Below, in pieces: positions 456 to 23,895 of a stretch of DNA of 29,551 nucleotides. Location: assembly GCA_964626035.1 (NCBI GenBank), contig CAZVEC010000001.1, positions 1 to 29,551 of the forward strand, given 5' to 3'. Under the pieces are notes generated by a model. That model did no database searches and was not told the DNA's origin. It was given only the letters and a program-made list of their open reading frames with translations. The DNA comes from an uncultured Candidatus Saccharibacteria bacterium. GTDB lineage: Bacteria; Patescibacteriota; Minisyncoccia; Phycocordibacterales; CAZVEC01. The position numbers and the translations under genes were made by a program. How positions within the stretch are numbered: the stretch's first letter is position 1; each line of letters starts with the position of its first letter.

Positions 456-935
456 CTATTTTTTTATGTTTTCAATTGAAAGTTTTTTAAGTTTTATTGT
501 TGCGTCATCAAATGATTTGGAGCCTTTTTGGTAAATTTCTGTTGCTTTGTCAGTTCTTTCATTATTTTTCCTTAATATGTCCGTCAAAGCTTTCTTGTCT
601 TTTTTCTCAAGTGACAAATTTCCCAATATGCCCACCAGATCATAGTAGTTTTTAACTGTCAGTGCATAAGCGTCATTAAATTCCACAATAATCTGGCCTG
701 ATTGCTGGATGATTTCCATCGCCTCTAATAAAGCAACGAAACAATCAACACTGTCTTGGCTGTTTGTCTCCATGTAGTCTCCGTGTAAGACAGTTTCATG
801 TTGATTTTGACCATTAAGTATCTCATTCAATTCCTTTTTTATTTCCTCCTCTTCAGGGTCTTTCTTTTTAGAGACCTGGCTGTATAGATTATTGATTAAT
901 AATCCTGTCAGCAGGCAAAACAATAATTTTTTCAT
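456..935 (-). CDS. Secreted helical hypothetical protein, paralog of 1807..2256
   Basis: Signal peptide MKKLLFCLLTGLLINNLYS|Q. Shares QHETVLxG and CFxALxEAMEII blocks with 1807..2256. Confidence 0.8.
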   Translation of the reverse strand: MKKLLFCLLTGLLINNLYSQVSKKKDPEEEEIKKELNEILNGQNQHETVLHGDYMETNSQDSVDCFVALLEAMEIIQQSGQIIVEFNDAYALTVKNYYDLVGILGNLSLEKKDKKALTDILRKNNERTDKATEIYQKGSKSFDDATIKLKKLSIENIKK

Positions 936-971
936 AGTTTTAATTTTTAAGGTGCGTAAATAAATTCCCTT

Positions 972-1018
972 TTAAAATACACCAAAACCATTGACAAGTC
1001 AAGTATTTTTGCTAGGAT
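972..1018. promoter_or_regulatory. Overlapping divergent sigma70 promoters sharing palindromic TTGAC-AA-GTCAA (991..1002)
   Basis: Plus strand: TTGACA-16-TAGGAT with TGn extension. Minus strand: TTGACT-17-TATTTT. Confidence 0.6.
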
Positions 1019-1058
1019 AGCGGGGAACACTTATTTAAAAACAAAAAATCAAAATGTT

Positions 1059-1733
1059 ATGAAAAACTTGATATTTTTCTTCGGAATTATTTTTTCTTTT
1101 TGTATCTTTGGACAGAAAAATGAAAATACCTCAATCGGAGCCATTGGTTCACAGAAAAATCAGGAAACAATAAAACAATGGAAAATTTGGAAGACGGTGA
1201 AGTATACAAATCATAAATCTTCTAACGAAGTAAAAAAATCTTTTGCTGAGAAAGGTATATTATATAGATCATCTTGCGTATTCTATGCCGATAAGAAATT
1301 TATGAGGAGAGCAAAATTTACAGAAAACACCAAAGAAGAGATTATTAATCTTGTTCTGCTTTCGCCTCAAGAGCTTGGTGTTAAAGATAGTGGGATGGTT
1401 AGTTACAGTAAAATTTGCAGGAGTGCAAAAAGGCTCGGATTGAAGTTGTGCACGCCAAATATTGCAATTGCATTGCGCGAGCAATATTTAAATCAATCGG
1501 ATAGAGAAGGTGAAAGGATTTTTTTAGCAATGAATATAAAAAAATCTTTTCTTGTTACGACTGATTTTAATCCCTTCCGTCCCCGCTGGCCCTTTTATCT
1601 TTTTAATGAACGAATGCTTTGTTCTGTTTATATTGATTTCAATAGAAATCCGGTGCTTAATGTTACTGGCATCGATGATGACGCATCTTTCTTTTATTCG
1701 GATGAAAAAATAGTTTTTAGTCTTCCGAACTAG
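1059..1733 (+). CDS. Secreted hypothetical protein
   Basis: Signal peptide ...FSFCIFG|Q. The mature part (WKTVKY...LVLLSPQELG...AKRLGLKLC...ALREQY) resembles an unannotated family I recall from CPR proteomes (recollection, unverified). Confidence 0.75.
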   Translation: MKNLIFFFGIIFSFCIFGQKNENTSIGAIGSQKNQETIKQWKIWKTVKYTNHKSSNEVKKSFAEKGILYRSSCVFYADKKFMRRAKFTENTKEEIINLVLLSPQELGVKDSGMVSYSKICRSAKRLGLKLCTPNIAIALREQYLNQSDREGERIFLAMNIKKSFLVTTDFNPFRPRWPFYLFNERMLCSVYIDFNRNPVLNVTGIDDDASFFYSDEKIVFSLPN

Positions 1734-1760
1734 AGAAGCTAAAATTATTTAGAAAATTTT

Positions 1761-1788
1761 AAAACCCGCACATATGTGCGGGTTTTTT
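1761..1788. terminator. Bidirectional intrinsic terminator
   Basis: Perfect palindrome AAAACCCGCACATATGTGCGGGTTTT between convergent genes; homologous to 401..437. Confidence 0.8.
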
Positions 1789-1806
1789 GTAGTAAATTAT
1801 TCCATG

Positions 1807-2256
1807 CTACTTTAGTATTATTTCTTTTTTGGAAAGCTTTTTCAGCTTCACAGCTGCTTCTGCGTAAGTGTTTGAGCTTTTTTTGTAAATTTCGATAGCC
1901 TTGCCGGCTTTTTCATTATGTTTCTCTATGTTGCGTAAAACTGCCTTCTTGTCTTTTTTTCTTATGCGGCAATTTTTTATTGCATCCGACAAATAACCAT
2001 TACCTTGGTTTAATAATTCAATGGCTTCGTCAGATTCTTTTATGGCTTGGTTTAATTGCATAATAATTTCCATCGCTTCATTTAAGGCATTGAAACAACC
2101 AATACTATTTGTGTCTCTTATATAAACTCCATTTAAGACGGTTTCGTGTTGCATGCTGTCTTTTGTATAAACACCACTCAAGACAGTGGGACGATTTTGG
2201 CTATAAAGACCATTGAACAATAATATCGGCAGAAGGAAAAACAGTAATTTTTTCAT
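1807..2256 (-). CDS. Secreted helical hypothetical protein, paralog of 456..935
   Basis: Signal peptide MKKLLFFLLPILLFNGLYS|Q; aligns by eye with 456..935. Confidence 0.8.
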   Translation of the reverse strand: MKKLLFFLLPILLFNGLYSQNRPTVLSGVYTKDSMQHETVLNGVYIRDTNSIGCFNALNEAMEIIMQLNQAIKESDEAIELLNQGNGYLSDAIKNCRIRKKDKKAVLRNIEKHNEKAGKAIEIYKKSSNTYAEAAVKLKKLSKKEIILK

Positions 2257-2290
2257 AATTTTTAGTTTTAAAGTGCGTAAATAAATTCAA

Positions 2291-2339
2291 TTTAAAATTA
2301 TCACAAAACCATTGACAAGTCAAGGATTTGTGCTAGGAT
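2291..2339. promoter_or_regulatory. Second copy of the divergent promoter with TTGAC-AA-GTCAA (2312..2323)
   Basis: Near-identical to 940..1018: GTGCGTAAATAAATT...CAAAACCATTGACAAGTCAAG.ATTT.TGCTAGGAT. Confidence 0.6.
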
Positions 2340-2378
2340 TGGGATGAATAATTTGTTTAACCTAAATGCTCATTTAAA

Positions 2379-2873
2379 ATGAAAAAACTAATTCTATTGT
2401 CATTATTGATATCATTATCAGTAATGATCTGGCTTCCTGTTTCAGCTCAAACAGATGAAAAGGAAATTATGCCCGTATCTTTCTGCCTTTCGTCAACACA
2501 TAAATTGGCGAGCATGATGTCCGATATTCAGGTAAATAATTATTTAAAAACTAGAACAGTGTTGACGATTTCAACAATGTTCATTGAAGGTGAAGAGTTT
2601 ATGGCTATTATTGGTTTGTATAAAGATACGACTTTGCAGCCAGGGTTTTATGTAAAAAACGGTAAAAAATGGTGTTGGGTAGCATCTTTGTTCTATGTAT
2701 GGGGGGATTATTTTCCGTCTCATGTAAGGATATATAAGCCGAAAGAAAGATTTAGTTATTGTGACGAAAATGAGAGTATTGAATTGGTTTATACAGACTA
2801 CAAAGGTGGTGAATATAGCGAAATTTTTGATCCCAAAACAAAGGAAGTAGTAGCTATTGTTAATCATTACTGA
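2379..2873 (+). CDS. Secreted hypothetical protein
   Basis: Signal peptide MKKLILL...WLPVSA|Q; followed by a terminator. Confidence 0.75.
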   Translation: MKKLILLSLLISLSVMIWLPVSAQTDEKEIMPVSFCLSSTHKLASMMSDIQVNNYLKTRTVLTISTMFIEGEEFMAIIGLYKDTTLQPGFYVKNGKKWCWVASLFYVWGDYFPSHVRIYKPKERFSYCDENESIELVYTDYKGGEYSEIFDPKTKEVVAIVNHY

Positions 2874-4801: not shown

Positions 4802-6721
4802 ATGCCTATAAATTTTCAAAAAAATCAAAATGAAAATAGGGGGTCAAAAAAGACGTCCAAAAAAGATGGTCCGAAGTTTTCTAATTTGATGATGACGGGA
4901 CTTCTTATTTTAATGCTTATCACCGCGCTTTACTCGGTGATTTCTTCGCCTGACAAGAAAGTGGAGGAGATTTCTATTTCCGATCTGGCCAAGAAGGTGG
5001 AAAATGCCGAAGTTAAGAATATTGAAGTGGCTGGCGAAAAGCTTAACATAGAGCTTAATGATGGCACTTTAAATCGGGCCAAAAAGGAAACAGAATCATC
5101 GTTGTCTGAAACTTTAAATAATTACGGAGTGACGGCGGAAAAATTAGCCGGTGTCCGTATTATAGTCAAAAATGAAAGTGGACTTGGTTTTTGGCTTTTA
5201 AATATTTTGCCGTTTTTGGTGCCTATTCTTTTTATTTTTATTTTCTTTTGGTTTATTTCGCGCCAGGTCAAAGGCGCCGGCATGCAGGCTTTTTCCTTCG
5301 GCCAGTCCAAAGCGCGCATCACTGATCCGAACGACAAAAATAATAAAGTTACTTTCAAAGACGTGGCCGGCTGCAAGGAGGCCAAAGAAGAATTAAAAGA
5401 GATTGTTGATTTCCTTAAAAGTCCGAAAAAATTCTTGGATATCGGCGCGAGGATTCCAAAGGGCGTGATTTTAATGGGAGCTCCGGGTACGGGAAAAACT
5501 CTGCTTGCTAGAGCTGTCGCTGGCGAGGCTAGCGTTCCATTCTTTCATCTTTCCGGTTCGGAATTTGTGGAGATGTTTGTGGGCGTGGGAGCTTCTCGCG
5601 TACGCGATCTTTTTAAAATGGCCAAGAAAGCGGCTCCGGCTATTATCTTTGTCGATGAACTTGATGCGATCGGGAGGACCCGCGGGGGAGGATTCGGCGG
5701 AGGTAATGATGAGCGTGAGCAGACCTTAAATCAAATCCTAGTGGAAATGGACGGCTTTGAGCCTACTGATAAAGTAATAGTCATGGCGGCCACAAACAGG
5801 CCTGACGTTTTGGATCCGGCACTTGTCCGTCCGGGACGTTTTGACCGAAAAGTGATTCTTGATCTGCCTGACCGATCTGATCGCGAAGAGATTTTGAAAA
5901 TTCACGCGGTTAAAAAACCTCTTGCTGAAGACATTAATTTGAAGTTGATTGCGGAGCGAACTCCGGGATTTTCCGGCGCTGATTTGTATTCTCTGATGAA
6001 CGAAGGCGCGATCTTGGCTGCGAGGGAGAATCGCAAGCAAGTTTTTCAATTCGACCTCATCCGTGCGATTGAAAAGGTGATGCTGGGGCCCGAGCGCAAG
6101 AGCCATCTGCTTTCCAAAAAAGAAAAAGAAATTACCGCCTATCATGAAGCGGGGCATGCTCTTGTGGCGTCTGTGCTTCCGTATGCCGATCCGGTGCATA
6201 AAGTTTCCATTGTGGCCCGCGGGCGCGCCGGGGGATACACTTTAAAGCTTCCACTTGAAGATAGAAAGCTGCAGTCCAAGAAAGAATTCATAGACGATAT
6301 CGCGATGTCTTTGGGCGGTTATGTTGCCGAAAAAATGATTTTTGGAGACATTACGACCGGTCCATCGAGCGACTTGCAAGTGGCCACAAATTTAGCGCGA
6401 GCCATGGTCACCCGTTGGGGGATGTCGGATGTTATCGGCCCTGTTGCTCTAGGTGGAGAAGGCGGAAGGCCTTTGTGGGGCGAGGCTCCGGAAAAAGAAT
6501 ATTCTGAAGAAATATCAGCCAAAGTAGATTCTGAAATTTCTAAGATAATAAACAATGGCATAAAAACTGCGGAAAAAGTTTTGGCTGATCATAAAAAAGC
6601 ACTAGATGCAATTGCGAGCAAGCTTATTGAAGTTGAAACTCTTGAACAAGAAGAATACGAAAAGGTAATAATCGCTCACGGAATAATGCCAAAGACTAAA
6701 GCAGATGAGTCTGTTGGTTAG
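4802..6721 (+). CDS. ftsH: ATP-dependent zinc metalloprotease FtsH
   Basis: Two TM segments, Walker A GAPGTGKT, Walker B IIFVDELD, second region of homology [20 protein letters not shown], and HEAGH zinc motif. Confidence 0.99.
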
Positions 6722-8123: not shown

Positions 8124-8861
8124 CTATTCTCGTAAATCAGAGGATAGCTTTTTAATTTTAGTTAAACATTCTTCAATGTCATTTATGATCATATTTTCCG
8201 ACAGTCTTAAAATAGTCCAGCCATCAGATTTCAAATTAGTGTTTTTTATTTTATCTTTTATTTTTTGCTGCGGAGTTGAATGTGATGCTTGATTGTCACA
8301 CTCGATTGCCAGTTTTTTATTTTTTCCATAAATTGCAAAATCCAGCCTGTATCTTTTTTTGTTTGCTGTTATTGTATGTTCTTTTAGAGCTTTAATACCA
8401 GCTTGTTTTAATTTATTTTCTATCATTATTTCGATTGGTGCTATATTGAAAAGTTCGAGCAAATTTTTGGAATTGCGTAATTTATTCAGTGTAGTAAATC
8501 CGAAAGTTACTCTGCGAGGCGCAGTATTTTTAATAGGTTTTTTAAGTCTGATTATTTTTCCAACATAACAGATCAGATAAAAATTCCCGGCTCGCGGATG
8601 TAGTCGTTCTTTTGGCAGAGCTTTACTGCGTTTTGTTATTTCTGTCCTTAAAACTTTTGCATAATAATTTATCCGTTTTCCGTTTTTTCCGAAAGAAATA
8701 GGCTGATAAAAAGCCAGATAATCAAAATGTTTTATTGGTGAATGGCTTATTGGAATTCTATACCAATGATGTTCGAGAAGAGTTTTTAAATCATTCTTGT
8801 TTTTTAGTACGCCGACCAAAACAACATGGTTTGTTTTATGTGTTAAATTGGCTTTTGTCAT
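8124..8861 (-). CDS. DUF559/Vsr-like PD-(D/E)XK endonuclease with an N-terminal PUA/EVE-like domain
   Basis: C-terminus YRLDFAI...LAIECDNQASH...GWTILRLSE is typical of DUF559. The N-terminal WYRIP...YLAFYQP...INYYAKV domain is called PUA-like by inference only. Confidence 0.75.
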   Translation of the reverse strand: MTKANLTHKTNHVVLVGVLKNKNDLKTLLEHHWYRIPISHSPIKHFDYLAFYQPISFGKNGKRINYYAKVLRTEITKRSKALPKERLHPRAGNFYLICYVGKIIRLKKPIKNTAPRRVTFGFTTLNKLRNSKNLLELFNIAPIEIMIENKLKQAGIKALKEHTITANKKRYRLDFAIYGKNKKLAIECDNQASHSTPQQKIKDKIKNTNLKSDGWTILRLSENMIINDIEECLTKIKKLSSDLRE

Positions 8862-9127: not shown

Positions 9128-10309
9128 ATGGATTCAACAGATACACAAAAGGAAAAATTAGCGCAAGCAGAAAAAGCCCCAGGGGTAGCTTTAGGTATGG
9201 CTCCATCTGCCCAAGTGAAGAAAATTGAAAATGCAGAAGAATATAAAAATTTAATAACTGAAACTGAAAAGAAAATAGAACAGAAAAGCGAAGGATTAAT
9301 TTCTGATACTCAAGCGAGATTTTCAAAAAGGACAACATATTTGAATCCAAGTGCGCAAAAGATTACAGAAGGAAACAATCTTTTGAATCAATATGCTGAA
9401 AAAACAAGAACAGCTCAAAAAGGTTTTAAAGAAAAATTAGGCCGCTATATAACAATGCTCGGTTTTGTGGCCGTGATAAGCGGGCAAGTATCCAAGGCGG
9501 CAGCGGAGGCACCAGAGAAAGATATTCCCTCAGCCGGCAAGCAAATAGAACATGCAGGCGCATTTAAATCGTCAGGTGGCGAAGAAGGCGGGTCTGCTCT
9601 AAATATCGGCTCCGCACTTGAAGGAGGCGGCGGGGAACCGGAAGAAGAGGATATCACAAAAGAAGTGGAAAAAAGACTTGGTCTTTCTTTATCCACACCT
9701 GAAGAATCTAAATCAGATATTTCAACCGAATCCGGTGAGGGGTTTAGTGTTGATAGTACTTTGAAGGAAATTGGAGATAGACATGACAGTGCTTTTGGAG
9801 AAAAATTTGGTGATCATGCCAAGCCGTCAGATTATATTAAGGGACTCGAACAAGGAGAAGTGGAGCGACTTCAAGAAATTCTTCAAAAGGCTGGATATGA
9901 TATAAATGTTGACGATAAATGGGGTATGAAAACATCTGATGCATGGAAAGATTATGTGGAGAAAGTTAAGAGCGGTCAGATGAAGGCAGTAGAGGAAGAT
10001 GTAGTAGATAATGATTTAATAAAAAAAGTGAGTGAAGTATCGGATGAATTTAAGGCAGAGAAGGTGGCAAAGGATGTTAAAATTGAAATGGAACAAAGTA
10101 TCCATAAAGGCGAGCGAAAAATACCCACGCAATGGCCCAATATAAAAATTATCTCAGAGCAAGATGAGCAAGGAAACTTTATTCCAAAATCTTTCGAAAA
10201 CAAATATGGAGCGAGAAGAGCTTACATTCCAAGCGGAACAAACATTGACGAAAGCTTTCAGTACGAAAAACCACTGCCAGCCACTGCCAGTCAGCCAAGT
10301 ATTAACTAA
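9128..10309 (+). CDS. Membrane-anchored acidic protein with a peptidoglycan-binding (PG_binding_1-like) domain
   Basis: Hydrophobic segment YITMLGFVAVISG near aa 110; VERLQEILQKAGYDINVDDKWGMKTSDAWKDY matches the PGBD pattern. Confidence 0.7.
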   Translation: MDSTDTQKEKLAQAEKAPGVALGMAPSAQVKKIENAEEYKNLITETEKKIEQKSEGLISDTQARFSKRTTYLNPSAQKITEGNNLLNQYAEKTRTAQKGFKEKLGRYITMLGFVAVISGQVSKAAAEAPEKDIPSAGKQIEHAGAFKSSGGEEGGSALNIGSALEGGGGEPEEEDITKEVEKRLGLSLSTPEESKSDISTESGEGFSVDSTLKEIGDRHDSAFGEKFGDHAKPSDYIKGLEQGEVERLQEILQKAGYDINVDDKWGMKTSDAWKDYVEKVKSGQMKAVEEDVVDNDLIKKVSEVSDEFKAEKVAKDVKIEMEQSIHKGERKIPTQWPNIKIISEQDEQGNFIPKSFENKYGARRAYIPSGTNIDESFQYEKPLPATASQPSIN

Positions 10310-10343
10310 TTTTTCTTATACCTATCCATATCCTTATAAAAAA

Positions 10344-10379
10344 ATAATCCTCACTTTTCGATCGAAAAGTGAGGATTAT
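10344..10379. terminator. 36-bp perfect palindrome between convergent genes, likely a bidirectional terminator
   Basis: ATAATCCTCACTTTTCGA|TCGAAAAGTGAGGATTAT. Confidence 0.65.
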
Positions 10380-10382
10380 GTA

Positions 10383-11147
10383 TTACCAATTCAGCTTAGT
10401 TTTTATTTGCCTGAATTGACTCTCGTTTATGAATTTGCCCGCTCTGAGTAAATTCAATTTCTTTGAAAATCGCGGATCCGGCTTTACTTTTTCAAAAAGA
10501 TTAGGCATACCAGCAAGCGCTGCATAAATTTCTGCTACAAATGAAGCAATGTCTTCCTCAATATCAGTACATTCTGCGTAGCATATCTGCTTTCCACTTA
10601 GTGTATCCACATGAGCAAGAGCAGTGTTATACGCATTGCCGCCTCCGGTTGTAACTTTCAACCCATTTCCTTTGAAAGTGGAGACATTTTGCCATAGTGA
10701 ATCGAAATCAGACCATTCCTTTCTTAAAGCTTTCAATCTAAGGTGTGCGATTTCATGCCAAAGCGTGCGCATAATTTCCTTTTCTGTTCTCGTAGATTTA
10801 AGGAAAATAATGCCAGTTTTTGGATTAGATAGGCCTACAACTTCGCCATCGTTTTCCTTTATTATTTTCCCGCTGAAAAATAATGAATCGTCCATGATGA
10901 TGAAGTAGGGCAGGCTGCCCATTTCCTTTGCTTCGAGTTTCATGCAAGCTTCTTTTATGGCTTTCTCGAATTTCTTTTCAAGATCGCCATAAACAGCTAC
11001 ATTTACTGCATTATTTTCAGAAATATTAATCTGATAAACAGTAAGTAATCTTGCTTTGAGCAATGCATTTTCATCTTGAGCTAAAGCGGTAACAGCTGTA
11101 ATAATAAGCAAAATAGTAGCAATTCCAAGCAATAATTTAGTTTTCAT
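10383..11147 (-). CDS. Secreted zincin-like metallopeptidase
   Basis: Signal peptide ...TAVTALA|Q; LWHEIAH (HExxH) plus downstream YA...EEDIASF as candidate third ligand. Confidence 0.7.
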   Translation of the reverse strand: MKTKLLLGIATILLIITAVTALAQDENALLKARLLTVYQINISENNAVNVAVYGDLEKKFEKAIKEACMKLEAKEMGSLPYFIIMDDSLFFSGKIIKENDGEVVGLSNPKTGIIFLKSTRTEKEIMRTLWHEIAHLRLKALRKEWSDFDSLWQNVSTFKGNGLKVTTGGGNAYNTALAHVDTLSGKQICYAECTDIEEDIASFVAEIYAALAGMPNLFEKVKPDPRFSKKLNLLRAGKFINESQFRQIKTKLNW

Positions 11148-11199
11148 AGAACAAATTTTTAATAATCCTTCATCTTATACCACGAATGCTAAAAAAAAT

Positions 11200-11233
11200 C
11201 AACCCCCACCTTTCGTTCGAAGGGTAGGGGTTG
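11200..11233 (-). terminator. Hairpin, likely terminator of 11254..11672
   Basis: CAACCCC...GGGGTTG stem; T-run follows on the minus strand. Confidence 0.55.
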
Positions 11234-11253
11234 TGTTTTACAGTAAATCAGTA

Positions 11254-11672
11254 TTAAATTTCCCAAAGTTCTGATATTACAATCTTTTTAGGCTCCTTCC
11301 ATGCTAATCTTGTTTTTTCAATATTAATAATCAAGGATTCATGTTTTAATTTAAAAACATTTTCATTGCTCTGATACCAACAAAATTTTGAATCTCCATT
11401 TTGAATCAAAGTTCCTTGGTGGCTGTGTTCCTTTCCATTACAAATATTATCTAGCATTAGATGATAGATGAACTTTATTCTGTGTTTCTTGCAAATCTCC
11501 CTAAAGAGTTTACTAAGAGACACACAATCAGCTCTTCCGCTTTCAAACAAATTTAATAGACTGCCATTATTTTTTTGAGAATAATAAACATTAGTTAAGG
11601 AGTGTTCTTTTTTTATTTTTTTAATGTACTTTCAAATTCTCTGATGGCCTTATTAATTTTCCTACTTTCCAT
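11254..11672 (-). pseudogene. Frameshifted gene (one base short in an A7 run); joined product about 139 aa, possibly transglutaminase-like
   Basis: ATG 11672 reads MESRKINKAIREFESTLKK* and stops right after TTA AAA AAA. The -1 frame stays open from that run to 11254. A TTTACA-16-TACAAT promoter lies upstream. Confidence 0.55.
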
Positions 11673-11729
11673 AAGAAGATTGTTATTTTACGTCCGCGAG
11701 CTATTGTATAGATTATTTAGGAAATGTAA

Positions 11730-11772
11730 ACCCTAACACCAATTTTTAATTTATTAGAATTGGTGTTAGGGT
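11730..11772. repeat. 15-bp perfect inverted repeat (ACACCAATT/AATTGGTGT family)
   Basis: ACCCTAACACCAATT-13nt-AATTGGTGTTAGGGT just downstream of the recG remnant stop. Confidence 0.75.
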
Positions 11773-11791
11773 AAATAGGTTATTTGTAATC

Positions 11792-12018
11792 CTATTCAAA
11801 ATGAAATTCGTCGGTTTTTAATTTGACCATTTGTTTGAGGAGGGGATAGTTTTCCAGTTCTGGATTTTGCTTGATAAGAGCTTGCGCTTCAGTGCGGGCG
11901 GCCCCGTAAAATCATTCGGCAAGCTCATGATAACGGGGTAAACTTCGACGGATTCGACCCATTCAAATGCTTCAGGGCAAGCAATCTCACCGAAGGCTAT
12001 TTTGATGTTTTTAATGGC
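11792..12018 (-). pseudogene. recG: Diverged duplicate of the recG 3' end, interrupted by a palindromic repeat cluster
   Basis: 11792..11902 translates AARTEAQALIKQNPELENYPLLKQMVKLKTDEFHFE*, 34/36 aa identical to the RecG C-terminus. 11999..12018 gives AIKNIK, the residues just upstream in RecG. Confidence 0.9.
11903..11998. repeat. Nested REP-like cluster (TTCG(A/G)CAAGCTCA and CAGGGCAAG motifs)
   Basis: CCCCGT/ACGGGG stem enclosing ATCAT-TCGGCAAGCTC-ATGAT, then TTCGAC...CAGGGCAAGC; splits the recG remnant. Confidence 0.65.
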
Positions 12019-12035
12019 CATGATATATTGGAAGT

Positions 12036-12197
12036 ATGAAAACAGCTGCTAAAATAAATATAAATCAAACGCTGCTAAAGTATGTTACACCCAGATCTAA
12101 AATAGGTCTTATTAAGCGTTTAGCAGGCTCGATTTCTCCTAAGGAGGCTAAAAAATGGATTGCCGAAGTTCGCAAGATGCGAGCTTCTTGGCGATAA
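12036..12197 (+). CDS. Putative VapB-type antitoxin, 53 aa; below the ORF-track cutoff
   Basis: MKTAAKININQTLLKYVTPRSKIGLIKRLAGSISPKEAKKWIAEVRKMRASWR*. Ends 7 nt before the PIN gene. TGaTATATT extended -10 lies 6 nt before the ATG. Confidence 0.7.
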   Translation: MKTAAKININQTLLKYVTPRSKIGLIKRLAGSISPKEAKKWIAEVRKMRASWR

Positions 12198-12204
12198 TAA
12201 AAAA

Positions 12205-12576
12205 ATGTATCTTCTTGATACAAATTCAATTATTTATTTTCTAACTGGCGATAAGAACGCTGTCAGCTTGATCAGTGAATTATTTTTGAGAAATGAGATT
12301 GTATATGTTCCGACCATTGTCAGACTGGAATTACTTAGTAAGCCTGGCCTCTTGCGTTCGGAGCATTCTAGTATTATGGATTTCCTAAATAGCGTTAGGG
12401 AAATTAATTTGGATACAGCGATTGCTGATTTGGCGGCAGAAATAAGAAGAACATATAAGCTTAAAGTAGCAGACAGTATTATAGCCGCAACAACTTTGTA
12501 TACAGGCTCAACTTTAGTAACTCGCAATGGCCGAGATTTCAAAAATATTCAGAATTTTAATATTTTAGCTATATAA
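12205..12576 (+). CDS. vapC: PIN-domain ribonuclease toxin (VapC)
   Basis: MYLLDTNSIIYFL, RLEL, VADSIIAAT and LVTRNGRDF motifs; true start at ATG 12205. Confidence 0.93.
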   Translation: MYLLDTNSIIYFLTGDKNAVSLISELFLRNEIVYVPTIVRLELLSKPGLLRSEHSSIMDFLNSVREINLDTAIADLAAEIRRTYKLKVADSIIAATTLYTGSTLVTRNGRDFKNIQNFNILAI

Positions 12577-12642
12577 ATTAAAGCACTGAATTTAGTTACA
12601 TCGCTGGCCCCTGTGGCCGGTTTTTTCGTGCAGTTTCATGAG

Positions 12643-12671
12643 TTGACAGCCGTAGAGAGAGAGAGTATTAT
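12643..12671 (+). promoter_or_regulatory. Sigma70 promoter with (AG)6 in the spacer
   Basis: TTGACA(12643)-GCCGTAGAGAGAGAGAG (17 nt)-TATTAT(12666). Confidence 0.7.
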
Positions 12672-12691
12672 GAGGATATTATTAGATTAAT

Positions 12692-13132
12692 ATGAATCAT
12701 AATAATATGACCAAAGAAGGACCACAAGTAAATATAGAAAACGAAGAAAAAAAGCCGAAAGATTTAAATGAAGCCATGAAAATAATAAGTGATATGAAAG
12801 ATAAATATAAATATCTTTCAAAAGCATTTCGAGGAGTTACATATTCACTTATAGCAATAACATCACTTGCTTCCGCAGTTGGTACATATAAGTGGAATAA
12901 TGACAAAGAAAAGGATGCGAGAATTACGGAAAATTTAAAAAAAATGCAAGGAATAATATTTGATGCTCAAAATCATTTTGTTTCACCAGGCGGAAAAGAA
13001 TATATATATGATAACAAAAAAGTATATCTTTCATCTAGTGCGGAATTTAAAGAAAATATAGATATTGATCCAGTTATAAATAAGTTAGATTATTTGGTTA
13101 ATATAACCAAAAACGAATTAGATTTAAAATAG
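12692..13132 (+). CDS. Single-TM hypothetical protein
   Basis: Charged N-terminus, TM segment VTYSLIAITSLASAVG, good promoter upstream. Confidence 0.7.
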   Translation: MNHNNMTKEGPQVNIENEEKKPKDLNEAMKIISDMKDKYKYLSKAFRGVTYSLIAITSLASAVGTYKWNNDKEKDARITENLKKMQGIIFDAQNHFVSPGGKEYIYDNKKVYLSSSAEFKENIDIDPVINKLDYLVNITKNELDLK

Positions 13133-13139
13133 TTTGAAT

Positions 13140-13170
13140 AAAATAACCCCCCTTAAATGGGGGTTATTTT
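13140..13170. terminator. Bidirectional intrinsic terminator
   Basis: AAAATAACCCCC-CTTAAAT-GGGGGTTATTTT between convergent genes. Confidence 0.8.
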
Positions 13171-15373
13171 ATTCAAAATGAAACTCATCTGTTTTTAGCT
13201 TAACCATTTGCTTGAGGAGGGGATAGTTTTCAAGTTCGGGGTCGGTTTTGATGAGTGCCTGTGCTTCAGTCCGAGCGGCTTCGACCATTTTTATATTTTT
13301 GATCGCTTCCATGCCGAGGTCGGAGATGCCCCATTGTTTTGTTCCGCTAAGTTCGCCGGGACCACGTAAAGCCAAATCAAGCTCCGAAAGCTCAAATCCA
13401 TTTTTGGCAGTCTTCAGAGCCTTTAATCTCTCTATTGATTTATCACTTTTAGTTTCAGTAAACGTGTAGCAGTATGCCTGATGGGTGCTGCGTATGACGC
13501 GGCCACGCAGCTGGTGGAGCTGGGCGAGGCCGAATCGCTCCGCGCCTTCGATGATTATGATCGTCGCATTCGGCACATTCACTCCCACTTCCACTACGGA
13601 CGTGGCGCAGAGAATATGAATTTTATTTTCAGAAAAATCTTTCATTATTTTTTCCTTTTTTTCCTTCGTCATCTTGCTGTGAAGTATCCCTATTTCATAT
13701 TCAGGAAAAACTTTATCCTTTAATCTTTTAGCTTCAGCAGTTACTGATTTAGCTTGCAGAGCTCTTTCTTTATCAGGATCCGGTTCGTCAATGCGGGGGC
13801 ATATGACATACAGCTGCCGGCTCGCTTTAAGCTCGGTTCTGATTTTCTCATATGTTTCCTCTCGCCTGTCCTTCCGCACTATTTCAGTGATTATCTGCTT
13901 TCGGCCTGCCGGCATTTCATCCAATAAAGTCAAATCAAGATCGCCATAAATAGTGAGAGCCAGCGTGCGAGGAATAGGAGTGGCTGTCATGCTTAAAAAG
14001 TGTGGAGCAAATGCCTGTTTACGCGCTAGTTTCATTCTTTGGTTCGTGCCGAAGCGATGCTGTTCGTCGACTATAACAAGCGCGAGATGCTTGAAGTTAA
14101 CTGCCTTTTGGATCAAGGCGTGAGTACCGATAAGAATTGGAATCTCGCCGTTGCCGACCCATTTTAACAACTGGGCTCTGGAGATAGTTGTCCAACCTCC
14201 CGGATTAACTTTAGATGGGAATTTTTTGCAGCCGCTGCCGGTTATGAGGCCTATATTGATAGGAAGATGCTTGAAGTATGAAATAAAAGATTCGAAATGT
14301 TGGCCGGCCAGAATTTCCGTAGGCGCCATGTATGCCACTTGCAAGTTCCCAAAATCTTGCAAGTGGCCCTGCTTGCCCACCATAGCTTCAGCGACGGTGG
14401 GAGCGGCGAAGGGCCTAGTATTTACCACTGTGTGAGCGGCCACGGCTGCAACCAGAGTTTTGCCGCTTCCCACATCTCCCTCAAGAAGGCGCGACATCGG
14501 CCTTGGCTTCTCCAGATCGCTTAATATTTGTAAATTGGCTTTTTCTTGAGCAGGGGTTGGTTTAAAAGGAAAACGAGACAGGAATTTTTGAATATCATCA
14601 TTATCTGCCTTGATTCGAAAAGATTTATTTTTGGCGAATTCCATGCGGTCGTGCTGGCGCTCAAGCTGAATAAAAAAAACTTCTTCAAAAGCGAAGCGCT
14701 TGCGAGCGGCAGTTGCGTCCTCTTCTTTTTTGGGCATATGGATCCAAATCAAGGCAGAACGGAGTGAGGGGAGGCTGTATTTTTTTAATATTTCATGTGG
14801 GATATAATCTTCCATATTTTCGATTACTCCAGCCTTTATTATTTTTTGAATGGCATGATATATCCACTTTGAAGATAATCCTCTAGTTTCCGGATAAATA
14901 GGAAATCTTATCTCATGTTTTTTTTCGGAATGGGCAAAAAGAGAATCATGTATATCGATAGGTATTATCGGTAATTGTTCGAATTCCGGATTAGCTAAAT
15001 AAATACCGGATTTACCTTCAGTTACACGACCGGTTAACTTTAGCGATTGTCCAACTTTAATCATTTTAGCTGCATAAGCTTGATGAAACCAAATAGCTTT
15101 TATTTGGCCTGATAGGTCTTTAATCACGACTTCACCCATTGGGATTTTTGATCTAAACCCCTTTTTAGTAGCTGTCTTTATTATTTGGCCGTAAATTGTA
15201 GACGTTTCTCCGGGGATTAATTCTTTGATAAGTTTTAGTTCTCGGATATCGCTATAGCGCGAGGGAAAATAAAAAAGAAGTTCTCGAACTGTTTCGAGTT
15301 TAAGTTTTTTCAATGCCTTTTTTTGTTCCTCGGCAAGTCTAAATACCTTTTCAATAGGTGAATTTAAATCCAT
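13169..15373 (-). CDS. recG: ATP-dependent DNA helicase RecG
   Basis: OB/wedge domain, Walker A GDVGSGKT, MAPTEILA, DEQH box, MTATPIPRTL, HQLRGRV and RGPGE motifs. Confidence 0.99.
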   Translation of the reverse strand: MDLNSPIEKVFRLAEEQKKALKKLKLETVRELLFYFPSRYSDIRELKLIKELIPGETSTIYGQIIKTATKKGFRSKIPMGEVVIKDLSGQIKAIWFHQAYAAKMIKVGQSLKLTGRVTEGKSGIYLANPEFEQLPIIPIDIHDSLFAHSEKKHEIRFPIYPETRGLSSKWIYHAIQKIIKAGVIENMEDYIPHEILKKYSLPSLRSALIWIHMPKKEEDATAARKRFAFEEVFFIQLERQHDRMEFAKNKSFRIKADNDDIQKFLSRFPFKPTPAQEKANLQILSDLEKPRPMSRLLEGDVGSGKTLVAAVAAHTVVNTRPFAAPTVAEAMVGKQGHLQDFGNLQVAYMAPTEILAGQHFESFISYFKHLPINIGLITGSGCKKFPSKVNPGGWTTISRAQLLKWVGNGEIPILIGTHALIQKAVNFKHLALVIVDEQHRFGTNQRMKLARKQAFAPHFLSMTATPIPRTLALTIYGDLDLTLLDEMPAGRKQIITEIVRKDRREETYEKIRTELKASRQLYVICPRIDEPDPDKERALQAKSVTAEAKRLKDKVFPEYEIGILHSKMTKEKKEKIMKDFSENKIHILCATSVVEVGVNVPNATIIIIEGAERFGLAQLHQLRGRVIRSTHQAYCYTFTETKSDKSIERLKALKTAKNGFELSELDLALRGPGELSGTKQWGISDLGMEAIKNIKMVEAARTEAQALIKTDPELENYPLLKQMVKLKTDEFHFE
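14368..14401. repeat. REP/RPE-like palindrome inside the recG coding frame (encodes PTVAEAMVGKQ)
   Basis: Minus strand CCCACC-GTCGCTGAAGCTAT-GGTGGG-CAAGCAGG: 6-bp GC stem around an imperfect GCTGAAGC core, between helicase motifs I and Ia. Confidence 0.6.
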
Positions 15374-15528: not shown

Positions 15529-15878
15529 TGATTCTTATAGGAGATTATGACTAGAACAATTGCCGAGGCAAGAATGGAAACATCTCTAAATATTATGTCC
15601 AAAAGCTGAATATTAAAAATAAGTATTCCTGTGAGCATGAGGGCGGCTATGATGCTTGGGATAAGGATTTTTTTACCAATGATCAGACAAAGTGCGATAA
15701 TAATTTGAAAAATAGCCCAGCTTCCTAGCAAGATTTCTGAGCTTATTGAGTTTGTAATAAAAGAAGGGAAAAAGCCAATCCATGCATCCGGATTAAAATA
15801 AGAAGCGATTGCTGCGTAAATAAAAGGGAATGCAAGTCCAAGACGTGCTATTAAAATTTCTATTTTATATTCCGGCAT
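15519..15878 (-). CDS. DoxX-family membrane protein
   Basis: About four TM helices; LIARLGLAFPFIYAAI and IIFRDVSILA motifs; ATG overlaps the cupredoxin stop. Confidence 0.8.
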   Translation of the reverse strand: MPEYKIEILIARLGLAFPFIYAAIASYFNPDAWIGFFPSFITNSISSEILLGSWAIFQIIIALCLIIGKKILIPSIIAALMLTGILIFNIQLLDIIFRDVSILASAIVLVIISYKNQKR

Positions 15879-16405
15879 TATTTTATGATTATGGTTCCGC
15901 CGTATGATGGCCTTGAATGGTCATGATACCTAAAGGTTCCTGTTTTATTAAAAGTAAATTCATACGATTCAAATCTTTGAATCGGACGGCCTGCATCAAA
16001 GCCGGGCAGATCTGTGTGAATAGGATGAGGATCAGAGGCTACCCAAAAAGTTCGATCACTTTGATTTTCAAATTTCACTTTAGTGCCGATTACTGCTTCA
16101 AATGTTTCTGGGCTAAAACCTGTGCTTGTATAGATTACAGTGTTTTCCGGAAGAGTGAGAATTTTCAATGGATCAGCATTATTATTTGAAGTACTGACAT
16201 TTTCAATAGAAGGCAAAGTGTTTTCTATTTGATCGTTTATTGCATCAGGTTGGTTAGGAATTATTTCAGCTATCTCTATATTTTCTTTTTCTATAGGAGT
16301 ATTTTGGATATCTTTTGCTTGATTATTAAAAAAAGAAAAAAAAGCTAAAATGACAATAGCTATGCCTAAGATAGTGTAAGCAGTTTTTTTCATACTAGTT
16401 TGCAA
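15878..16405 (-). CDS. Membrane-anchored cupredoxin-domain protein lacking the type-1 Cys and Met
   Basis: GFSPETFEAVIGTKVKFEN, YEFTFNKTGTFRYHDH and GTIIIK are cupredoxin strands; the protein has no Cys. Confidence 0.85.
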   Translation of the reverse strand: MQTSMKKTAYTILGIAIVILAFFSFFNNQAKDIQNTPIEKENIEIAEIIPNQPDAINDQIENTLPSIENVSTSNNNADPLKILTLPENTVIYTSTGFSPETFEAVIGTKVKFENQSDRTFWVASDPHPIHTDLPGFDAGRPIQRFESYEFTFNKTGTFRYHDHSRPSYGGTIIIK

Positions 16406-19692: not shown

Positions 19693-20310
19693 TTAATTGT
19701 AAGGGTACAAGAAAAAATTAAATCGGTTCCAACCGCAATTACCATAATCACATAAATAAATATTCCAATTTCTTTTTTCGTATTGCCATTCTACATTTAA
19801 GTATGCGCGTTCTCCTTCTTCGGTTATAACATAGAAAAAGTTGTCTTTTCCTATATCCAATCCGCCTATTTCCGGTCCGAGATTAAAAGTACCCCCATTT
19901 GGTTGAAACAAAAGCAGGAGATGTAATAATGAAAGGGCTTCCAGTATCGGTGTCGGCTTAAGCGAGTCAAAGCTGTTCTGTAGATCAGAGGTATAGACAC
20001 CGTGGGTTGTGAAATACATGGCTATTTGCTTTTTTGTGTCGTCCAATAATACCTCCCCAGCTATTGGTTCCAGAATTCTCCTGAGGGATGTGTCGCAGTC
20101 AATTTTTACACCATATTTATTACGCTTCTTGTAAAAATCGCCTACTGTCATCCGTGTATATTTGTATTCACTCTCATTATATACAGGACTACTTCCGAGA
20201 AGGATGAGTTGAGGGGCGTTAAAGAAACTTCGGATAACTTTTGGTTGTGGCGGCTGTGCTTTGATTATCGTGCTCAGCGCAATGAATAACATAATGACTA
20301 TTTTTTTCAT
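19693..20310 (-). CDS. Secreted hypothetical protein
   Basis: Signal peptide MKKIVIMLFIALSTIIKA|Q. The C-terminal LLxQPNG...NFFYV...W...W pattern resembles an unannotated family I recall from CPR proteomes (unverified). TTGACA-17-TATGAT promoter upstream. Confidence 0.75.
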   Translation of the reverse strand: MKKIVIMLFIALSTIIKAQPPQPKVIRSFFNAPQLILLGSSPVYNESEYKYTRMTVGDFYKKRNKYGVKIDCDTSLRRILEPIAGEVLLDDTKKQIAMYFTTHGVYTSDLQNSFDSLKPTPILEALSLLHLLLLFQPNGGTFNLGPEIGGLDIGKDNFFYVITEEGERAYLNVEWQYEKRNWNIYLCDYGNCGWNRFNFFLYPYN

Positions 20311-20401: not shown

Positions 20402-20446
20402 TAATTAAGCAAGTACCGTTCTTGCTTAATTACCTTGACAAGTCAA
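20402..20446. promoter_or_regulatory. 12-bp inverted repeat abutting a third TTGAC-AA-GTCAA palindrome (20435..20446)
   Basis: TAATTAAGCAAG-7nt-CTTGCTTAATTA, then CC, then TTGACAAGTCAA; plus strand TTGACA-17-TAAGGT. Confidence 0.6.
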
Positions 20447-20511: not shown

Positions 20512-20808
20512 ATGAAAACTACGTTATTATCAAAATTAGCAATACTTTTTAGTATAGCTTTTCTTTTTTCTCTTATGAGCTGCGATAGAGAAACCGTTTC
20601 TGAGCAGACTAAAACGGAAGTAGAAAATTGGCAGTCCTTCTATTTGGAAGTTTTTAACCTAACAACAAATTTTCAATTGAAACTGAACAGTGAGGATACT
20701 ACTTTTTCGCAGATGATTATCGTACCTAAAGGGTTGACCTTGAATCAAATAGCGTCAGTTTTTACGAAACATTTAAAGCCTGCGGCAAGACTAAGTCTTA
20801 GGTCTTGA
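20512..20808 (+). CDS. Putative lipoprotein
   Basis: Lipoprotein signal ...AFLFSLMS|CDRE. Confidence 0.65.
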   Translation: MKTTLLSKLAILFSIAFLFSLMSCDRETVSEQTKTEVENWQSFYLEVFNLTTNFQLKLNSEDTTFSQMIIVPKGLTLNQIASVFTKHLKPAARLSLRS

Positions 20809-21254: not shown

Positions 21255-21824
21255 ATGATACCAATAATACCACCTGCAATACCACATGAAATACCTCGTT
21301 TTGACGTCCCCTTATTTTATCAAATAGGGGATATTTCATCTGTTGAATGGCAGAAAAAAGGCTGCGGAGTGGCAGATGTCGCAATGATAGTGGAATTTTA
21401 TAAGCCTAACACTACTACAGTACAGGAAGTGCTTGAAGAGGCTATTGTGGCAGGAGCATATGTTAAAAACGTCGGTTGGAGCCATGTCGGTCTTGCTGCT
21501 TTGGCCAAAAAACACGACTTAGTGGGAAGAACTTTTGATTTATCTAAATCAAACAAAGAAGCCGCTTTCAATCAATTTAAAAATATTGTAACGGAAGGTC
21601 CTGCTATAGCGTCAATCCATCGAGGCTTTGATCCAAAAAGTCCTTATGGTCACCTTATTGTTATAACTGGATTCGACAAAGATTTCATTTACTATAATGA
21701 TCCGGGTAAACGCGAAGGTATAAGAAAAGTCTCAGTGGCCGATTTTAACAATGGTGGCTGGAAAAAAAGACTTATTGTTTTAAGACCGCCTGAACCGAAA
21801 ATAGAAATCGCTCAAGCGCGCTAA
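21255..21824 (+). CDS. C39-family (papain-like) cysteine peptidase
   Basis: QKKGCGVADVAMIV (Gln, Cys), GHLIVITGFD (His) and IYYNDP (Asp). TTGACT-17-TATTAT promoter lies 6 nt before the ATG. Confidence 0.88.
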   Translation: MIPIIPPAIPHEIPRFDVPLFYQIGDISSVEWQKKGCGVADVAMIVEFYKPNTTTVQEVLEEAIVAGAYVKNVGWSHVGLAALAKKHDLVGRTFDLSKSNKEAAFNQFKNIVTEGPAIASIHRGFDPKSPYGHLIVITGFDKDFIYYNDPGKREGIRKVSVADFNNGGWKKRLIVLRPPEPKIEIAQAR

Positions 21825-21831
21825 TAATTTA

Positions 21832-23796
21832 CTATTGAGAATTTTGCAAAGGATTTGGCAAAATTGCTCCGACAAGACATTTTTTTTGCCAAGGCTGGTA
21901 GATGCTTCGAAAATTTATACTATTAATTGTTCCGTCAGAGTAGCTAACAGTATATAAGACATCAGTCGTTATTCCATCATGCGGCGCCTCAAAACATTTT
22001 GTTTCTCCGACCGGAATTTCTTCGCTTTGAATATACATTGTTTCCGGCGCTGGAATTTTATTATACAAAGTTGCTTCTGAAATCTCCACAGAGCGGCCGT
22101 CTTTCTGGCCGTATAATTCCATTATCACCTGTTTGTTTTCCACTCTTGTCTGCAAGAGAAGGTAGTTGCCCGTGTCATTTACAAAGCGAAGATCCGGATG
22201 GGGTCCGTATATGGTGGCATCAAGTCCGGGCGGATCATAGTATTGGACAGTGAAACGATGATTTTGTCTTTCAGTAATATTTAAACCGGCATTTAGAGCT
22301 AGGCGGAAGAGGGTAGTGGCGATTTGACACAGGCCTCCGCCGAGTTCTTTGATGGTTCTATTTTCTTTGATCACTAATTCTTTCACATAGCCTTCCTTTT
22401 CTGTAACACGGCCAATGGAGGATACTGTGGAAAATTCTGCACCCGGGGCTATTAGTATGCCATTGATGGCGGCAGCTCCTATTTTTATATTATGTTCTCG
22501 ATCTGCGCTGCTTCCTTCAAAACTTGTGCGTGCCTCTCTGACTAAATCATTAATTTTATATTTATCTACGGTCTCTTTAGTGACTTTTGGTTCAACTTTA
22601 ATAATTTCAAGCGGCAGATATATCGTGCCGTTTTTAGGATTGAAATTTGCTTCAGAATTTACAGCGTTCAATGCAGCAGCAGACAAAAAATTCCCGTTTC
22701 TAGCAAATGTCTTTTCAATTTCGGGGATTATTTTTTCAATTTTTTGCACAGTTTTATCTATATCTACCGCATTGCCTGATTTGCCCGGAACAATTTCAAT
22801 CAGTTTTCCGTCCTGCATTTTAAATCGGCTGTTTTGCGGAGGATTGTTAATAAACCTAGCGATTGTATTTGTGAGATATTCCTCTAATATTGCGCCATCA
22901 ATGCCGATTCCGCCTTCTTTTTTTATGGTGAGCCATGATATTAGCTTAGGTCCCTTTATTGTCCATTTGCGTCCTTGATATTGAAATACTAAATTTATTT
23001 TTTTGGCCAAATTTTCGGCAAAATATAAGAATGGTTCAAGATCTGTTTCCGCGACTTTTGGCATATCTGCGCGTGCTTTGAAAGTTATGGGAGTTGAATC
23101 AAATTGGTTAAGTTTATTTTTTATAATATTTATAACTTCTTCTTTGTCTATATTTTCTCCCGCCTTTTCTTTTAATATGGATATTTTATTTTTATCTGAT
23201 GAAAATCTGGCGGGAATACTTAATTTGAAAAAATTATAAAGTTCGTTCTCGAGCAAAGAGTTTACAGCTTCTTTTTGGATATTGGCGGAAAAGTTGAAAT
23301 TTTTTTGCGCGAATATGAGTGCAAACTTTTCCTTTAAACTTCGAAAGAAATTAGCTTGATGGCCCCAACTATAAGCATTACGTAAATCGTTTTCCCAATT
23401 ACCGAGTGAAAAGTATTCCACTGAATTATCTGAAGTGAGTCCGGTGGCGAACATTGGTATGTTTACTTTTCGTATCCCCTTAGAGCTCTCAAAATTTATA
23501 TCCAACCCATTTTTTTGTAGTTCTTCGGCTTTCTCTCTAAAGTAGTTTAGAACTTCTGTGTAAGTTTTTCCGCCGACAGATTCATTATTTACAAAAATGC
23601 CGGGATAAAATCGGTCGCTATATTTAATTTCAAAAAAACCAAGTATTGATATTCCAAAAAGAGCCAGCAACAAAAAAATGAGCAAACCGATAGCCTTGAA
23701 CTTGAAAGTAGCAAAAGGCGGAACAGGCTTATTTGGCTTCTCTTTGTGCCCGCTATATTTATCAAACTGATTATGTGGATGATGTTTTTTGGACAT
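21832..23796 (-). CDS. VanW-family protein with N-terminal TM and putative peptidoglycan-binding (PG_binding_4/YoaR-like) region
   Basis: GGGLCQIATTLFRLALNAGL, ERQNH, GLDATIYGPHPDLRFVNDT. ATG 23796 (MSKKHH) is preferred because TATAAT lies 6 nt upstream. Confidence 0.92.
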   Translation of the reverse strand: MSKKHHPHNQFDKYSGHKEKPNKPVPPFATFKFKAIGLLIFLLLALFGISILGFFEIKYSDRFYPGIFVNNESVGGKTYTEVLNYFREKAEELQKNGLDINFESSKGIRKVNIPMFATGLTSDNSVEYFSLGNWENDLRNAYSWGHQANFFRSLKEKFALIFAQKNFNFSANIQKEAVNSLLENELYNFFKLSIPARFSSDKNKISILKEKAGENIDKEEVINIIKNKLNQFDSTPITFKARADMPKVAETDLEPFLYFAENLAKKINLVFQYQGRKWTIKGPKLISWLTIKKEGGIGIDGAILEEYLTNTIARFINNPPQNSRFKMQDGKLIEIVPGKSGNAVDIDKTVQKIEKIIPEIEKTFARNGNFLSAAALNAVNSEANFNPKNGTIYLPLEIIKVEPKVTKETVDKYKINDLVREARTSFEGSSADREHNIKIGAAAINGILIAPGAEFSTVSSIGRVTEKEGYVKELVIKENRTIKELGGGLCQIATTLFRLALNAGLNITERQNHRFTVQYYDPPGLDATIYGPHPDLRFVNDTGNYLLLQTRVENKQVIMELYGQKDGRSVEISEATLYNKIPAPETMYIQSEEIPVGETKCFEAPHDGITTDVLYTVSYSDGTINSINFRSIYQPWQKKCLVGAILPNPLQNSQ

Positions 23797-23895
23797 ATTT
23801 GTATTATACGATTTTATAAATAAAATCGCCATGATATTATAAAAGAAATTTAATACAATAAAATTTAAGAAAAAGCTAACAAACTTCGCCAGTCT

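Follow-up and report, generated by a model that had tools for sequence, protein, structure and literature searches.

Gln-first signal peptides and other Bacteroidota-style export signals in the accessory secretome of a small genome of the candidate phyla radiation

According to published work, the Q-rule, that is, a Gln at the +1 position of most signal peptidase I substrates, is confined to Bacteroidetes and relies on a glutaminyl cyclase that is essential (PgQC/PG2157; Bochtler et al., 2018, PMC5837995; Szczesniak et al., 2023, PMC10653852). The mean Q-value is 71% in Bacteroidetes, mostly below 9% in Chlorobi, and typically below 20% in Chlamydiae and Spirochaetes (PMC5837995); it exceeds 48% in 332 of 334 Bacteroidetes species. 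N-terminal Gln can also cyclise spontaneously, and the resulting pyroglutamate stabilises exported proteins (PMC5837995, PMC10653852), while the glutaminyl cyclase of P. gingivalis is essential (PMC10653852). Here we describe the same signature in a tiny genome of the candidate phyla radiation (CPR) in which no cyclase was recognisable. The stretch of DNA that we analysed, referred to as the window, covers the initial 29,551 bases of a contig of 32.7 kb from a groundwater metagenome and codes for six secreted proteins with a Gln directly behind the predicted signal peptide. The genome holding the window (G000) is a metagenome-assembled genome (MAG) of 925 kb in 111 contigs, 90.9% complete and 0.54% contaminated.

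In direct comparison to the Bacteroidetes Q-rule, the likeness concerns the frequency, with about 66% here against the mean of 71%, and the shape of the signal peptides (MKK, hydrophobic core, A/S/G at −1), as well as the accompanying lipobox proteins and proteins that bear a type IX secretion system (T9SS) tail. The differences are that G000 is a CPR genome of less than 1 Mb in which no cyclase of either known fold was found, that the trait is patchy within one order and not phylum-wide, that its carriers are mostly orphan accessory genes, and that pyroglutamate is putative in G000. The T9SS type A cargo of Bacteroidota and Ignavibacteriota (TIGR04183 / PF18962) is a second close system: tails of G000 and related CPR genomes score above the cut-off, show the same motifs, and mostly belong to proteins with Gln at +1, but no translocon was found in G000 by a search that lacked a positive control, and the six window proteins are tailless. 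A third parallel is the gene transfer from Bacteroidota to groundwater Patescibacteria (PMC12455944), which shares the habitat and the over-representation of Bacteroidota donors, but which concerns mainly information-processing and metabolic genes and leaves signal peptides and secreted proteins unmentioned. We found no publication that describes Gln-first signal peptides or T9SS tails in CPR. In our view, there is about an even chance that G000 possesses a lineage-specific, fast-evolving accessory secretome with export signals in the style of Bacteroidota and the Fibrobacteres–Chlorobi–Bacteroidetes (FCB) group, probably imported and then domesticated. The Gln-first secretome, in a genome that lacks the usual enzyme, is a hint that genes were received from Bacteroidota-type bacteria or that the organism lives on them.

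Open reading frames (ORFs) and signal-peptide-like N-termini were obtained with our own rule-based scripts and by reading of the N-termini, and all cleavage sites are thus predictions. The six window ORFs have an MK or MKK n-region, a hydrophobic core, and a small-x-small site immediately before Gln. They are listed with their sizes in amino acids (aa); the slash marks the predicted cut.

456 to 935, minus strand: secreted orphan protein, 159 aa; signal peptide coded by 879-935; LYS/Q, Gln codon 876-878; no Pfam family.
1059 to 1733, plus strand: secreted orphan protein, 224 aa; IFG/Q, Gln codon 1113-1115.
1807 to 2256, minus strand: secreted orphan protein, 149 aa; LYS/Q, Gln codon 2197-2199.
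2379 to 2873, plus strand: secreted orphan protein, 164 aa; VSA/Q, Gln codon 2448-2450; no Pfam family.
10383 to 11147, minus strand: secreted Peptidase_Mx1-like protein, 254 aa; ALA/Q, Gln codon 11076-11078.
19693 to 20310, minus strand: secreted orphan protein, 205 aa; IKA/Q, Gln codon 20254-20256.

An earlier note on this DNA had named these six ORFs, two of them as paralogs, and had placed the cuts directly before Gln. All six were located where it had put them and their Gln codons were checked, and both the rule-based script and the reading bore out the cuts. The paralogs are 456-935 and 1807-2256: their mature parts are 46% identical, and their signal peptides agree at 14 of 20 residues. 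The remaining window ORFs with a hydrophobic N-terminus (15878-16405, a VanW protein, and FtsH) resemble uncleaved membrane anchors. As Gln accounts for only 2.9% of the G000 proteome, its presence at +1 in six out of six cases is far beyond chance.

For the genome as a whole, our own single-best-site predictors were dropped, as they confused membrane anchors with signal peptides, and were replaced by explicit reading and by an enrichment test of sites versus non-sites. This test is blind to the +1 residue: it considers positions that lie just past the hydrophobic core and ahead of a hydrophilic stretch, and compares those with a valid −3/−1 motif to the other positions. Gln followed 28 of 163 valid sites (17%) in G000 but only 20 of 621 neighbouring non-site positions (3.2%), which corresponds to an odds ratio of 6.2 (p 4e-9) and agrees with the earlier expectation of a genome-wide excess over background. 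It was the most frequent +1 residue after valid sites. By reading, about 35 of the 52 classical signal peptides of G000 (~66%), located on at least 20 contigs, were followed by Gln and about 17 by another residue, so that in this rule-guided reading Gln stands at +1 of most signal peptidase I substrates, as it does in Bacteroidetes. Glu was the commonest +1 residue among the non-Gln classical signal peptides (contigs C64, C38, C41, C21, C7, C8, and C78), with about 7 of 17. N-terminal Glu is also able to cyclise to pyroglutamate, albeit slowly.

In principle, such a pattern could be an artefact of a bin or contig that mixes CPR and Bacteroidota DNA, or of misread cleavage sites. G000 is indeed a MAG of many contigs, the sites were assigned without SignalP, and in independent assemblies, the 456-2873 cluster is found on short contigs that end before ftsH. 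Two core genes of the window, assigned by Pfam and given here as context, are informative in this respect.

4802 to 6721, plus strand: ftsH, core gene outside the secretome; it anchors the contig in a Nomurabacteria-like CPR genome.
13169 to 15373, minus strand: recG, core gene; its counterparts in G001 (70% identical) and G046 (67% identical) lie in the same gene order.

G001 is a congener of G000, and G046 belongs to another family of the same order. FtsH was 77-85% identical to 80 MAG loci, mostly titled Candidatus Nomurabacteria, Paceibacterota, or Patescibacteria, in agreement with the Patescibacterial look that the earlier note had ascribed to the housekeeping genes; the flanks of ftsH in these 80 relatives contained too few signal peptides to inform on Gln at +1. 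The gene order of histidine kinase, response regulator, recG, the 8124-8861 gene, and ftsH is kept in both G001 and G046, and core CPR genes, again in an order that is conserved, lie on either side of two of the window Gln genes. Genes with CPR homologs were present on most G000 contigs, including all longer ones and every inspected contig with Gln or T9SS-tail genes. Judged by this gene identity, the synteny, a single native signal peptidase I and an M23 peptidase in common with most of the order (144 and 139 of 151 genomes), and the CPR genes on Gln-bearing contigs, G000 is a real, Nomurabacteria-like CPR genome and the contig is neither a chimera nor of Bacteroidota origin, as the earlier note had also assumed. 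Further arguments against an artefact are the very low contamination, the recurrence of the pattern in the congener, the independence of the enrichment test from sites assigned by eye, and the negative-control relatives, which lacked the signal with the same script. The artefact explanation is therefore largely refuted, and we regard it as extremely improbable.

Relatives from the same order were scanned as partial genomes with the script used for G000. The counts below give the proteins with a valid site followed by Gln in relation to all signal-peptide-like proteins, together with the site-level p value.

G001, same genus: 10/32, p 1.4e-5.
G046, another family: 21/43, p 9e-11.
G033, same order: 5/19, p 0.016, intermediate.
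G111, same order: 2/22, not significant.
G002, same order: 0/18, not significant.
G017, same order: 1/9, not significant.
G003, same order: 0/10, not significant.
G070, same order: 0/8, not significant.

In the genomes without the signal, Ala was usual at +1 and Gln occasional. Classical signal peptides as such were far more numerous in the Q-rule genomes than in their kin. The Gln(+1) trait is thus real but patchy: it is strong in G000, G001, and G046, weak or missing in G111, G002, G017, G003, and G070, and it is not lineage-wide.

The mature proteins themselves gave few clues to their ancestry. In a word-indexed search of 5.8 billion proteins, 1059-1733 matched only itself, and its look-alikes in a structure atlas were unnamed clusters. 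The 19693-20310 protein likewise matched itself alone in a HMMER search of 1.84 billion representatives, with structural look-alikes in Minisyncoccota clusters. As these two proteins and a T9SS-tailed protein encoded on contig C62 had only self-matches, neither a donor nor a family can be named for them. Bacteroidota orthologs of high identity, whose existence would have spoken for a simple recent transfer, the alternative named in the earlier note, were accordingly not among the matches; the orphan state of the window proteins equally means that a simple recent transfer is not demonstrated. The 10383-11147 protein differs in having recognisable structural neighbours: with an atlas score of 0.96 and a TM of 0.64 to Mx1 clusters from Bacteroidota, phages, and Peregrinibacteria, its modelled fold looks like that of a Peptidase_Mx1-type zinc metallopeptidase. 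No homolog of it was found in 40 relatives.

Signal peptides of the curated G000 list were divided into conserved and lineage-specific ones, depending on whether the mature part had a homolog in 2.8 Mb of relatives. Gln was found at +1 in 30 of 41 lineage-specific and in 5 of 11 conserved signal peptides.

Several points weigh against the view that the secretome was imported. Conserved proteins also have Gln in about 45% of cases, so that import alone does not explain the pattern, and some Gln(+1) proteins belong to CPR-type families, namely DUF5667, T4SS_pilin plus VanY, M23, and SLT. A Bacteroidota origin is not demonstrated for the six window proteins and the other tested members, for which sequence searches detected no homolog. 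The full-length tailed protein on C62 starts with Thr (VNA/T) and not with Gln. The cleavage sites rest on rules and are neither SignalP output nor experimental, and the lack of a cyclase gene is not certain for G000 alone, as this genome is 91% complete.

Part of these observations would be expected if the Q-rule were home-grown, with the lineage having acquired its own preference for Gln at +1 by convergence, either through selection for a blocked N-terminus or through the specificity of its signal peptidase, and with tails and lipoboxes being unrelated, older CPR features. The Gln at conserved CPR-type proteins (M23, pilin-like, VanY/T4SS_pilin, and DUF5667) fits such a scenario, as do the native-looking promoters of the Gln genes and the fact that T9SS tails are resident in 5% of Patescibacteria, including a closed genome. 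The M23 peptidase, which is common to 139 of 151 genomes of the order, is a case in point: G000 has Gln at the homologous position where most orthologs have Ala, and Gln occurs there in 7 of about 31 genomes of the order. However, as several other genomes share this Gln, including G111, which has no general Q-rule, the M23 protein is weak evidence for selection. Against a home-grown rule, Gln is most frequent in the lineage-specific orphans, the trait is not common to most tested genomes of the order, and its strength tracks the number of T9SS-tailed genes (10 in G046, 3-4 in G000, and none in G002 and G017). An altered peptidase is not apparent either: G000 has a single signal peptidase I (LepB), which has orthologs in 144 of the 151 genomes of the order and is 70% identical to its counterpart in the congener. 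Judged by this distribution, it is the ordinary enzyme of vertical descent, and no unusual variant was seen. Taken together, we consider a home-grown rule rather unlikely.

A Gln-first secretome raises the question of its processing machinery. The beta-propeller (PF05096) and M28 (PF04389) folds of glutaminyl cyclases had no match in G000, G001, and G046. PF05096 had no match in any of the 121 genomes of the order or the 301 genomes of the phylum, and M28 domains were present in just 5 of 121 genomes of the order. The earlier suggestion of an own pyroglutamate-capping system is not supported, as far as the known enzymes are concerned. With no recognisable cyclase, pyroglutamate could form only spontaneously or by means of an enzyme of a partner cell. 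It is conceivable that Gln is instead capped by an enzyme that is related to neither of the two known folds, in agreement with the strong Gln enrichment in the face of the lacking cyclase and with the essentiality of the P. gingivalis enzyme (PMC10653852). However, additional enzymes are rare in tiny genomes, and no candidate emerged from a search for genes that are common to G000, G001, and G046 but missing from other relatives, a crude search with partial genome samples that gave noise. We therefore see only a very small likelihood for this explanation. The published dependence of the Q-rule on a cyclase, in combination with the signature in a genome that shows none, allows for three explanations: a Gln-first N-terminus is of use even when no enzyme acts on it, the enzyme exists and is of an unknown type, or another cell processes the proteins.

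The Gln-first proteins are accompanied by further hallmarks of Bacteroidota and FCB bacteria. T9SS type A C-terminal sorting domains (TIGR04183) were identified in G000 at four positions, two of them above the curated cut-off of 23 bits and two weaker.

C62, 4276 to 4470: T9SS type A C-terminal sorting domain, 48.7 bits.
C33, 7015 to 7236: T9SS type A C-terminal sorting domain, 45.6 bits.
C52, 124 to 291: T9SS type A C-terminal sorting domain, weaker.
C19, 1817 to 1957: T9SS type A C-terminal sorting domain, weaker.

The CPR tails contain the textbook motifs PNPF, GxYFY, and KKMxLLK. Within the order, 19 of 151 genomes possess such tails (ten copies in G046), and across the phylum they occur in 15 of 301 genomes, including the closed single-contig genome G361. 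The tailed protein on C33 has Gln at +1 (LCS/Q), and tailed proteins of other CPR genomes mostly combine a signal peptide with Gln, while none of the six window proteins carries a tail. T9SS type B tails were not found in a search without a positive control, and SprA (PF14349) had no match in G000, G001, and G046; since the control genomes were likewise matchless, this search also lacked a positive control.

Another hallmark was located at C8:13510-18902, where five consecutive signal-peptide genes, four of them with Gln at +1, lie beside dnaE and RNase HII. This cluster encodes an OmpA protein with PorE/CHU_0125-like domain matches, whose named partial relatives come from Saprospiraceae, Chitinophagales, and Flavobacteriales, and whose nearest full-length relatives start with Gln.

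The third type of signal is the lipobox, of which the window contains one example.

20512 to 20808, plus strand: small lipobox-like protein; LMS/CDRE, Cys codon 20581-20583.

This is the lipoprotein that the earlier note had described, with acidic residues behind the Cys that were read as a Bacteroidota-type surface-export signal. While the ORF and its LMS/CDRE sequence stood up to scrutiny, the surface-export interpretation is not supported. Lgt (PF01790) and LspA (PF01252) had no match in G000, an outer membrane is not expected in CPR, which are thought to be single-membraned, and of the about eight lipobox-like N-termini in this genome, the approximately seven others mostly lack acidic residues after the Cys (CGTSS, CASNQ, CSGNK, CVNPH, in place of C-D-R-E in 20512-20808). 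Among the relatives, LspA was not found in G001, G111, G003, G041, and G002, and Lgt was not found in G001 and G046. A lipobox at C2:20506-21159 (LVS/CGTSS) is conserved with G046 (ISS/CGTSD). The T9SS tails, the PorE-like OmpA protein, and the lipoboxes without detected Lgt and LspA strengthen the Bacteroidota-type link. The tails and lipoboxes, for which machinery was not found either, provide a sequence-based lead to gene-exchange or host partners of uncultured CPR, and the identity of the partner or host is among the main questions about this group.

Signals without the matching machinery could in principle mean that the proteins are made for another cell. They would then be an effector set for a host with a Bacteroidota- or FCB-type envelope, released by Sec export at contact sites into the host periplasm, where the host cyclase would cap Gln and the host T9SS would export the tailed proteins. 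Such mimicry is attractive, as three types of export signals (Gln at +1, T9SS tail, and lipobox) are present, none of their processing machineries was found, and Bacteroidota possess all of these machineries. The genes are also intact, numerous, and under predicted strong promoters, and co-occurrence and gene sharing of Patescibacteria and Bacteroidota in aquifers have been published (PMC12455944). If the clade indeed lived on Bacteroidota- or Ignavibacteriota-type cells, the signature of signal peptide and tail could serve to predict the host phylum of uncultured CPR. However, nothing shows a host, and neither a contact structure nor a delivery route is in evidence; proteins coming from outside are beyond the reach of lipoprotein processing, and the SprA search, as mentioned, had no positive control. 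Plain import of genes, together with cyclisation that is spontaneous, accounts for the data in a simpler way, and we consider host mimicry distinctly improbable.

The reading that we favour, an imported and domesticated accessory secretome, can be outlined as follows. The secretome of G000 that depends on Sec and signal peptidase I would be dominated by mostly small, lineage-specific, and fast-evolving accessory proteins, which bear MKK-type signal peptides with a small-x-small motif before Gln, in some cases a lipobox Cys in its place, and in some cases a T9SS C-terminal tail. The gene pool most likely came from bacteria with a Q-rule and a T9SS (Bacteroidota or Ignavibacteriota) or from their mobile elements. 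In this respect, groundwater Patescibacteria have been reported to receive genes with an over-representation of Bacteroidota donors, for which the authors suggested a host-symbiont or close-proximity relationship (PMC12455944). The imported genes may have been domesticated under sigma-70-type promoters, including a palindromic cassette, and later expanded and diverged. Their products would leave the cell through Sec and be cleaved by LepB, the only native signal peptidase I, whereby the N-terminal Gln is exposed, and this Gln could then be converted to pyroglutamate either spontaneously or through the enzyme of a partner cell. The likely benefit would be the one shown for Bacteroidetes, namely the resistance of a blocked N-terminus to aminopeptidases. 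What we observed is the Gln pattern with its patchy distribution, the CPR identity, the negative searches for cyclase, Lgt, and LspA, and the T9SS tails; what we infer is the foreign origin, as well as the cyclisation and its benefit. Import of whole genes followed by divergence fits the data at least as well as a grafting of export signals onto symbiont proteins, which the earlier note had considered.

The promoters are of special interest for the domestication of these genes. A palindrome TTGAC(AA/TT)GTCAA occurs in 14 copies in G000, 11 of which lie 65-100 nt upstream of a start codon, with many Gln(+1) genes among those downstream. Three copies are in the window.

991 to 1002: palindrome TTGACAAGTCAA between divergent Gln(+1) genes; −35 box of predicted TTGACA-17-TAGGAT promoters on both strands.
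2312 to 2323: palindromic −35 element, copy 2, between 1807-2256 and 2379-2873.
20435 to 20446: palindromic −35 element, copy 3, between 19693-20310 and 20512-20808.

Each copy forms the predicted −35 box of a sigma-70-like promoter of the type TTGACA-17-TAGGAT with an extended −10 region, and the palindrome resembles a promoter cassette that is used repeatedly in the accessory secretome. Copies outside the window are on contigs C3, C4, C33, C2, and C35. The Gln(+1) genes have leaders of 35-45 nt, often with the motif TTTAAAA (16 of 28, as compared to 29 of 208 core genes), for example within 1003-1058 and 2324-2378 of the window, and they lack a Shine-Dalgarno motif. In core genes, recG and ftsH among them, the −10 box lies immediately before the ATG, as if they were leaderless. 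These promoter and leader features argue that the Gln genes are domesticated and probably expressed in the CPR cell.

With regard to its genomic context, the 10383-11147 gene is part of an accessory insert that separates two core genes, namely the 8124-8861 homolog and recG, as shown by synteny with G046 and G001. In comparison to these two genomes, the insert spans about 4.3 kb (window 9128-13168) and consists of 9128-10309, the gene of the Gln protein 10383-11147, and a vapBC island. Elsewhere in the window, a C39/C70-like papain-fold peptidase without signal peptide (21255-21824) adjoins the membrane-anchored VanW plus PG_binding_4 protein (21832-23832). Outside the window, C4:15242-28481 resembles an integrated element with serine-recombinase-like, primase-like, and other phage-like ORFs, and it carries three Gln(+1) genes.

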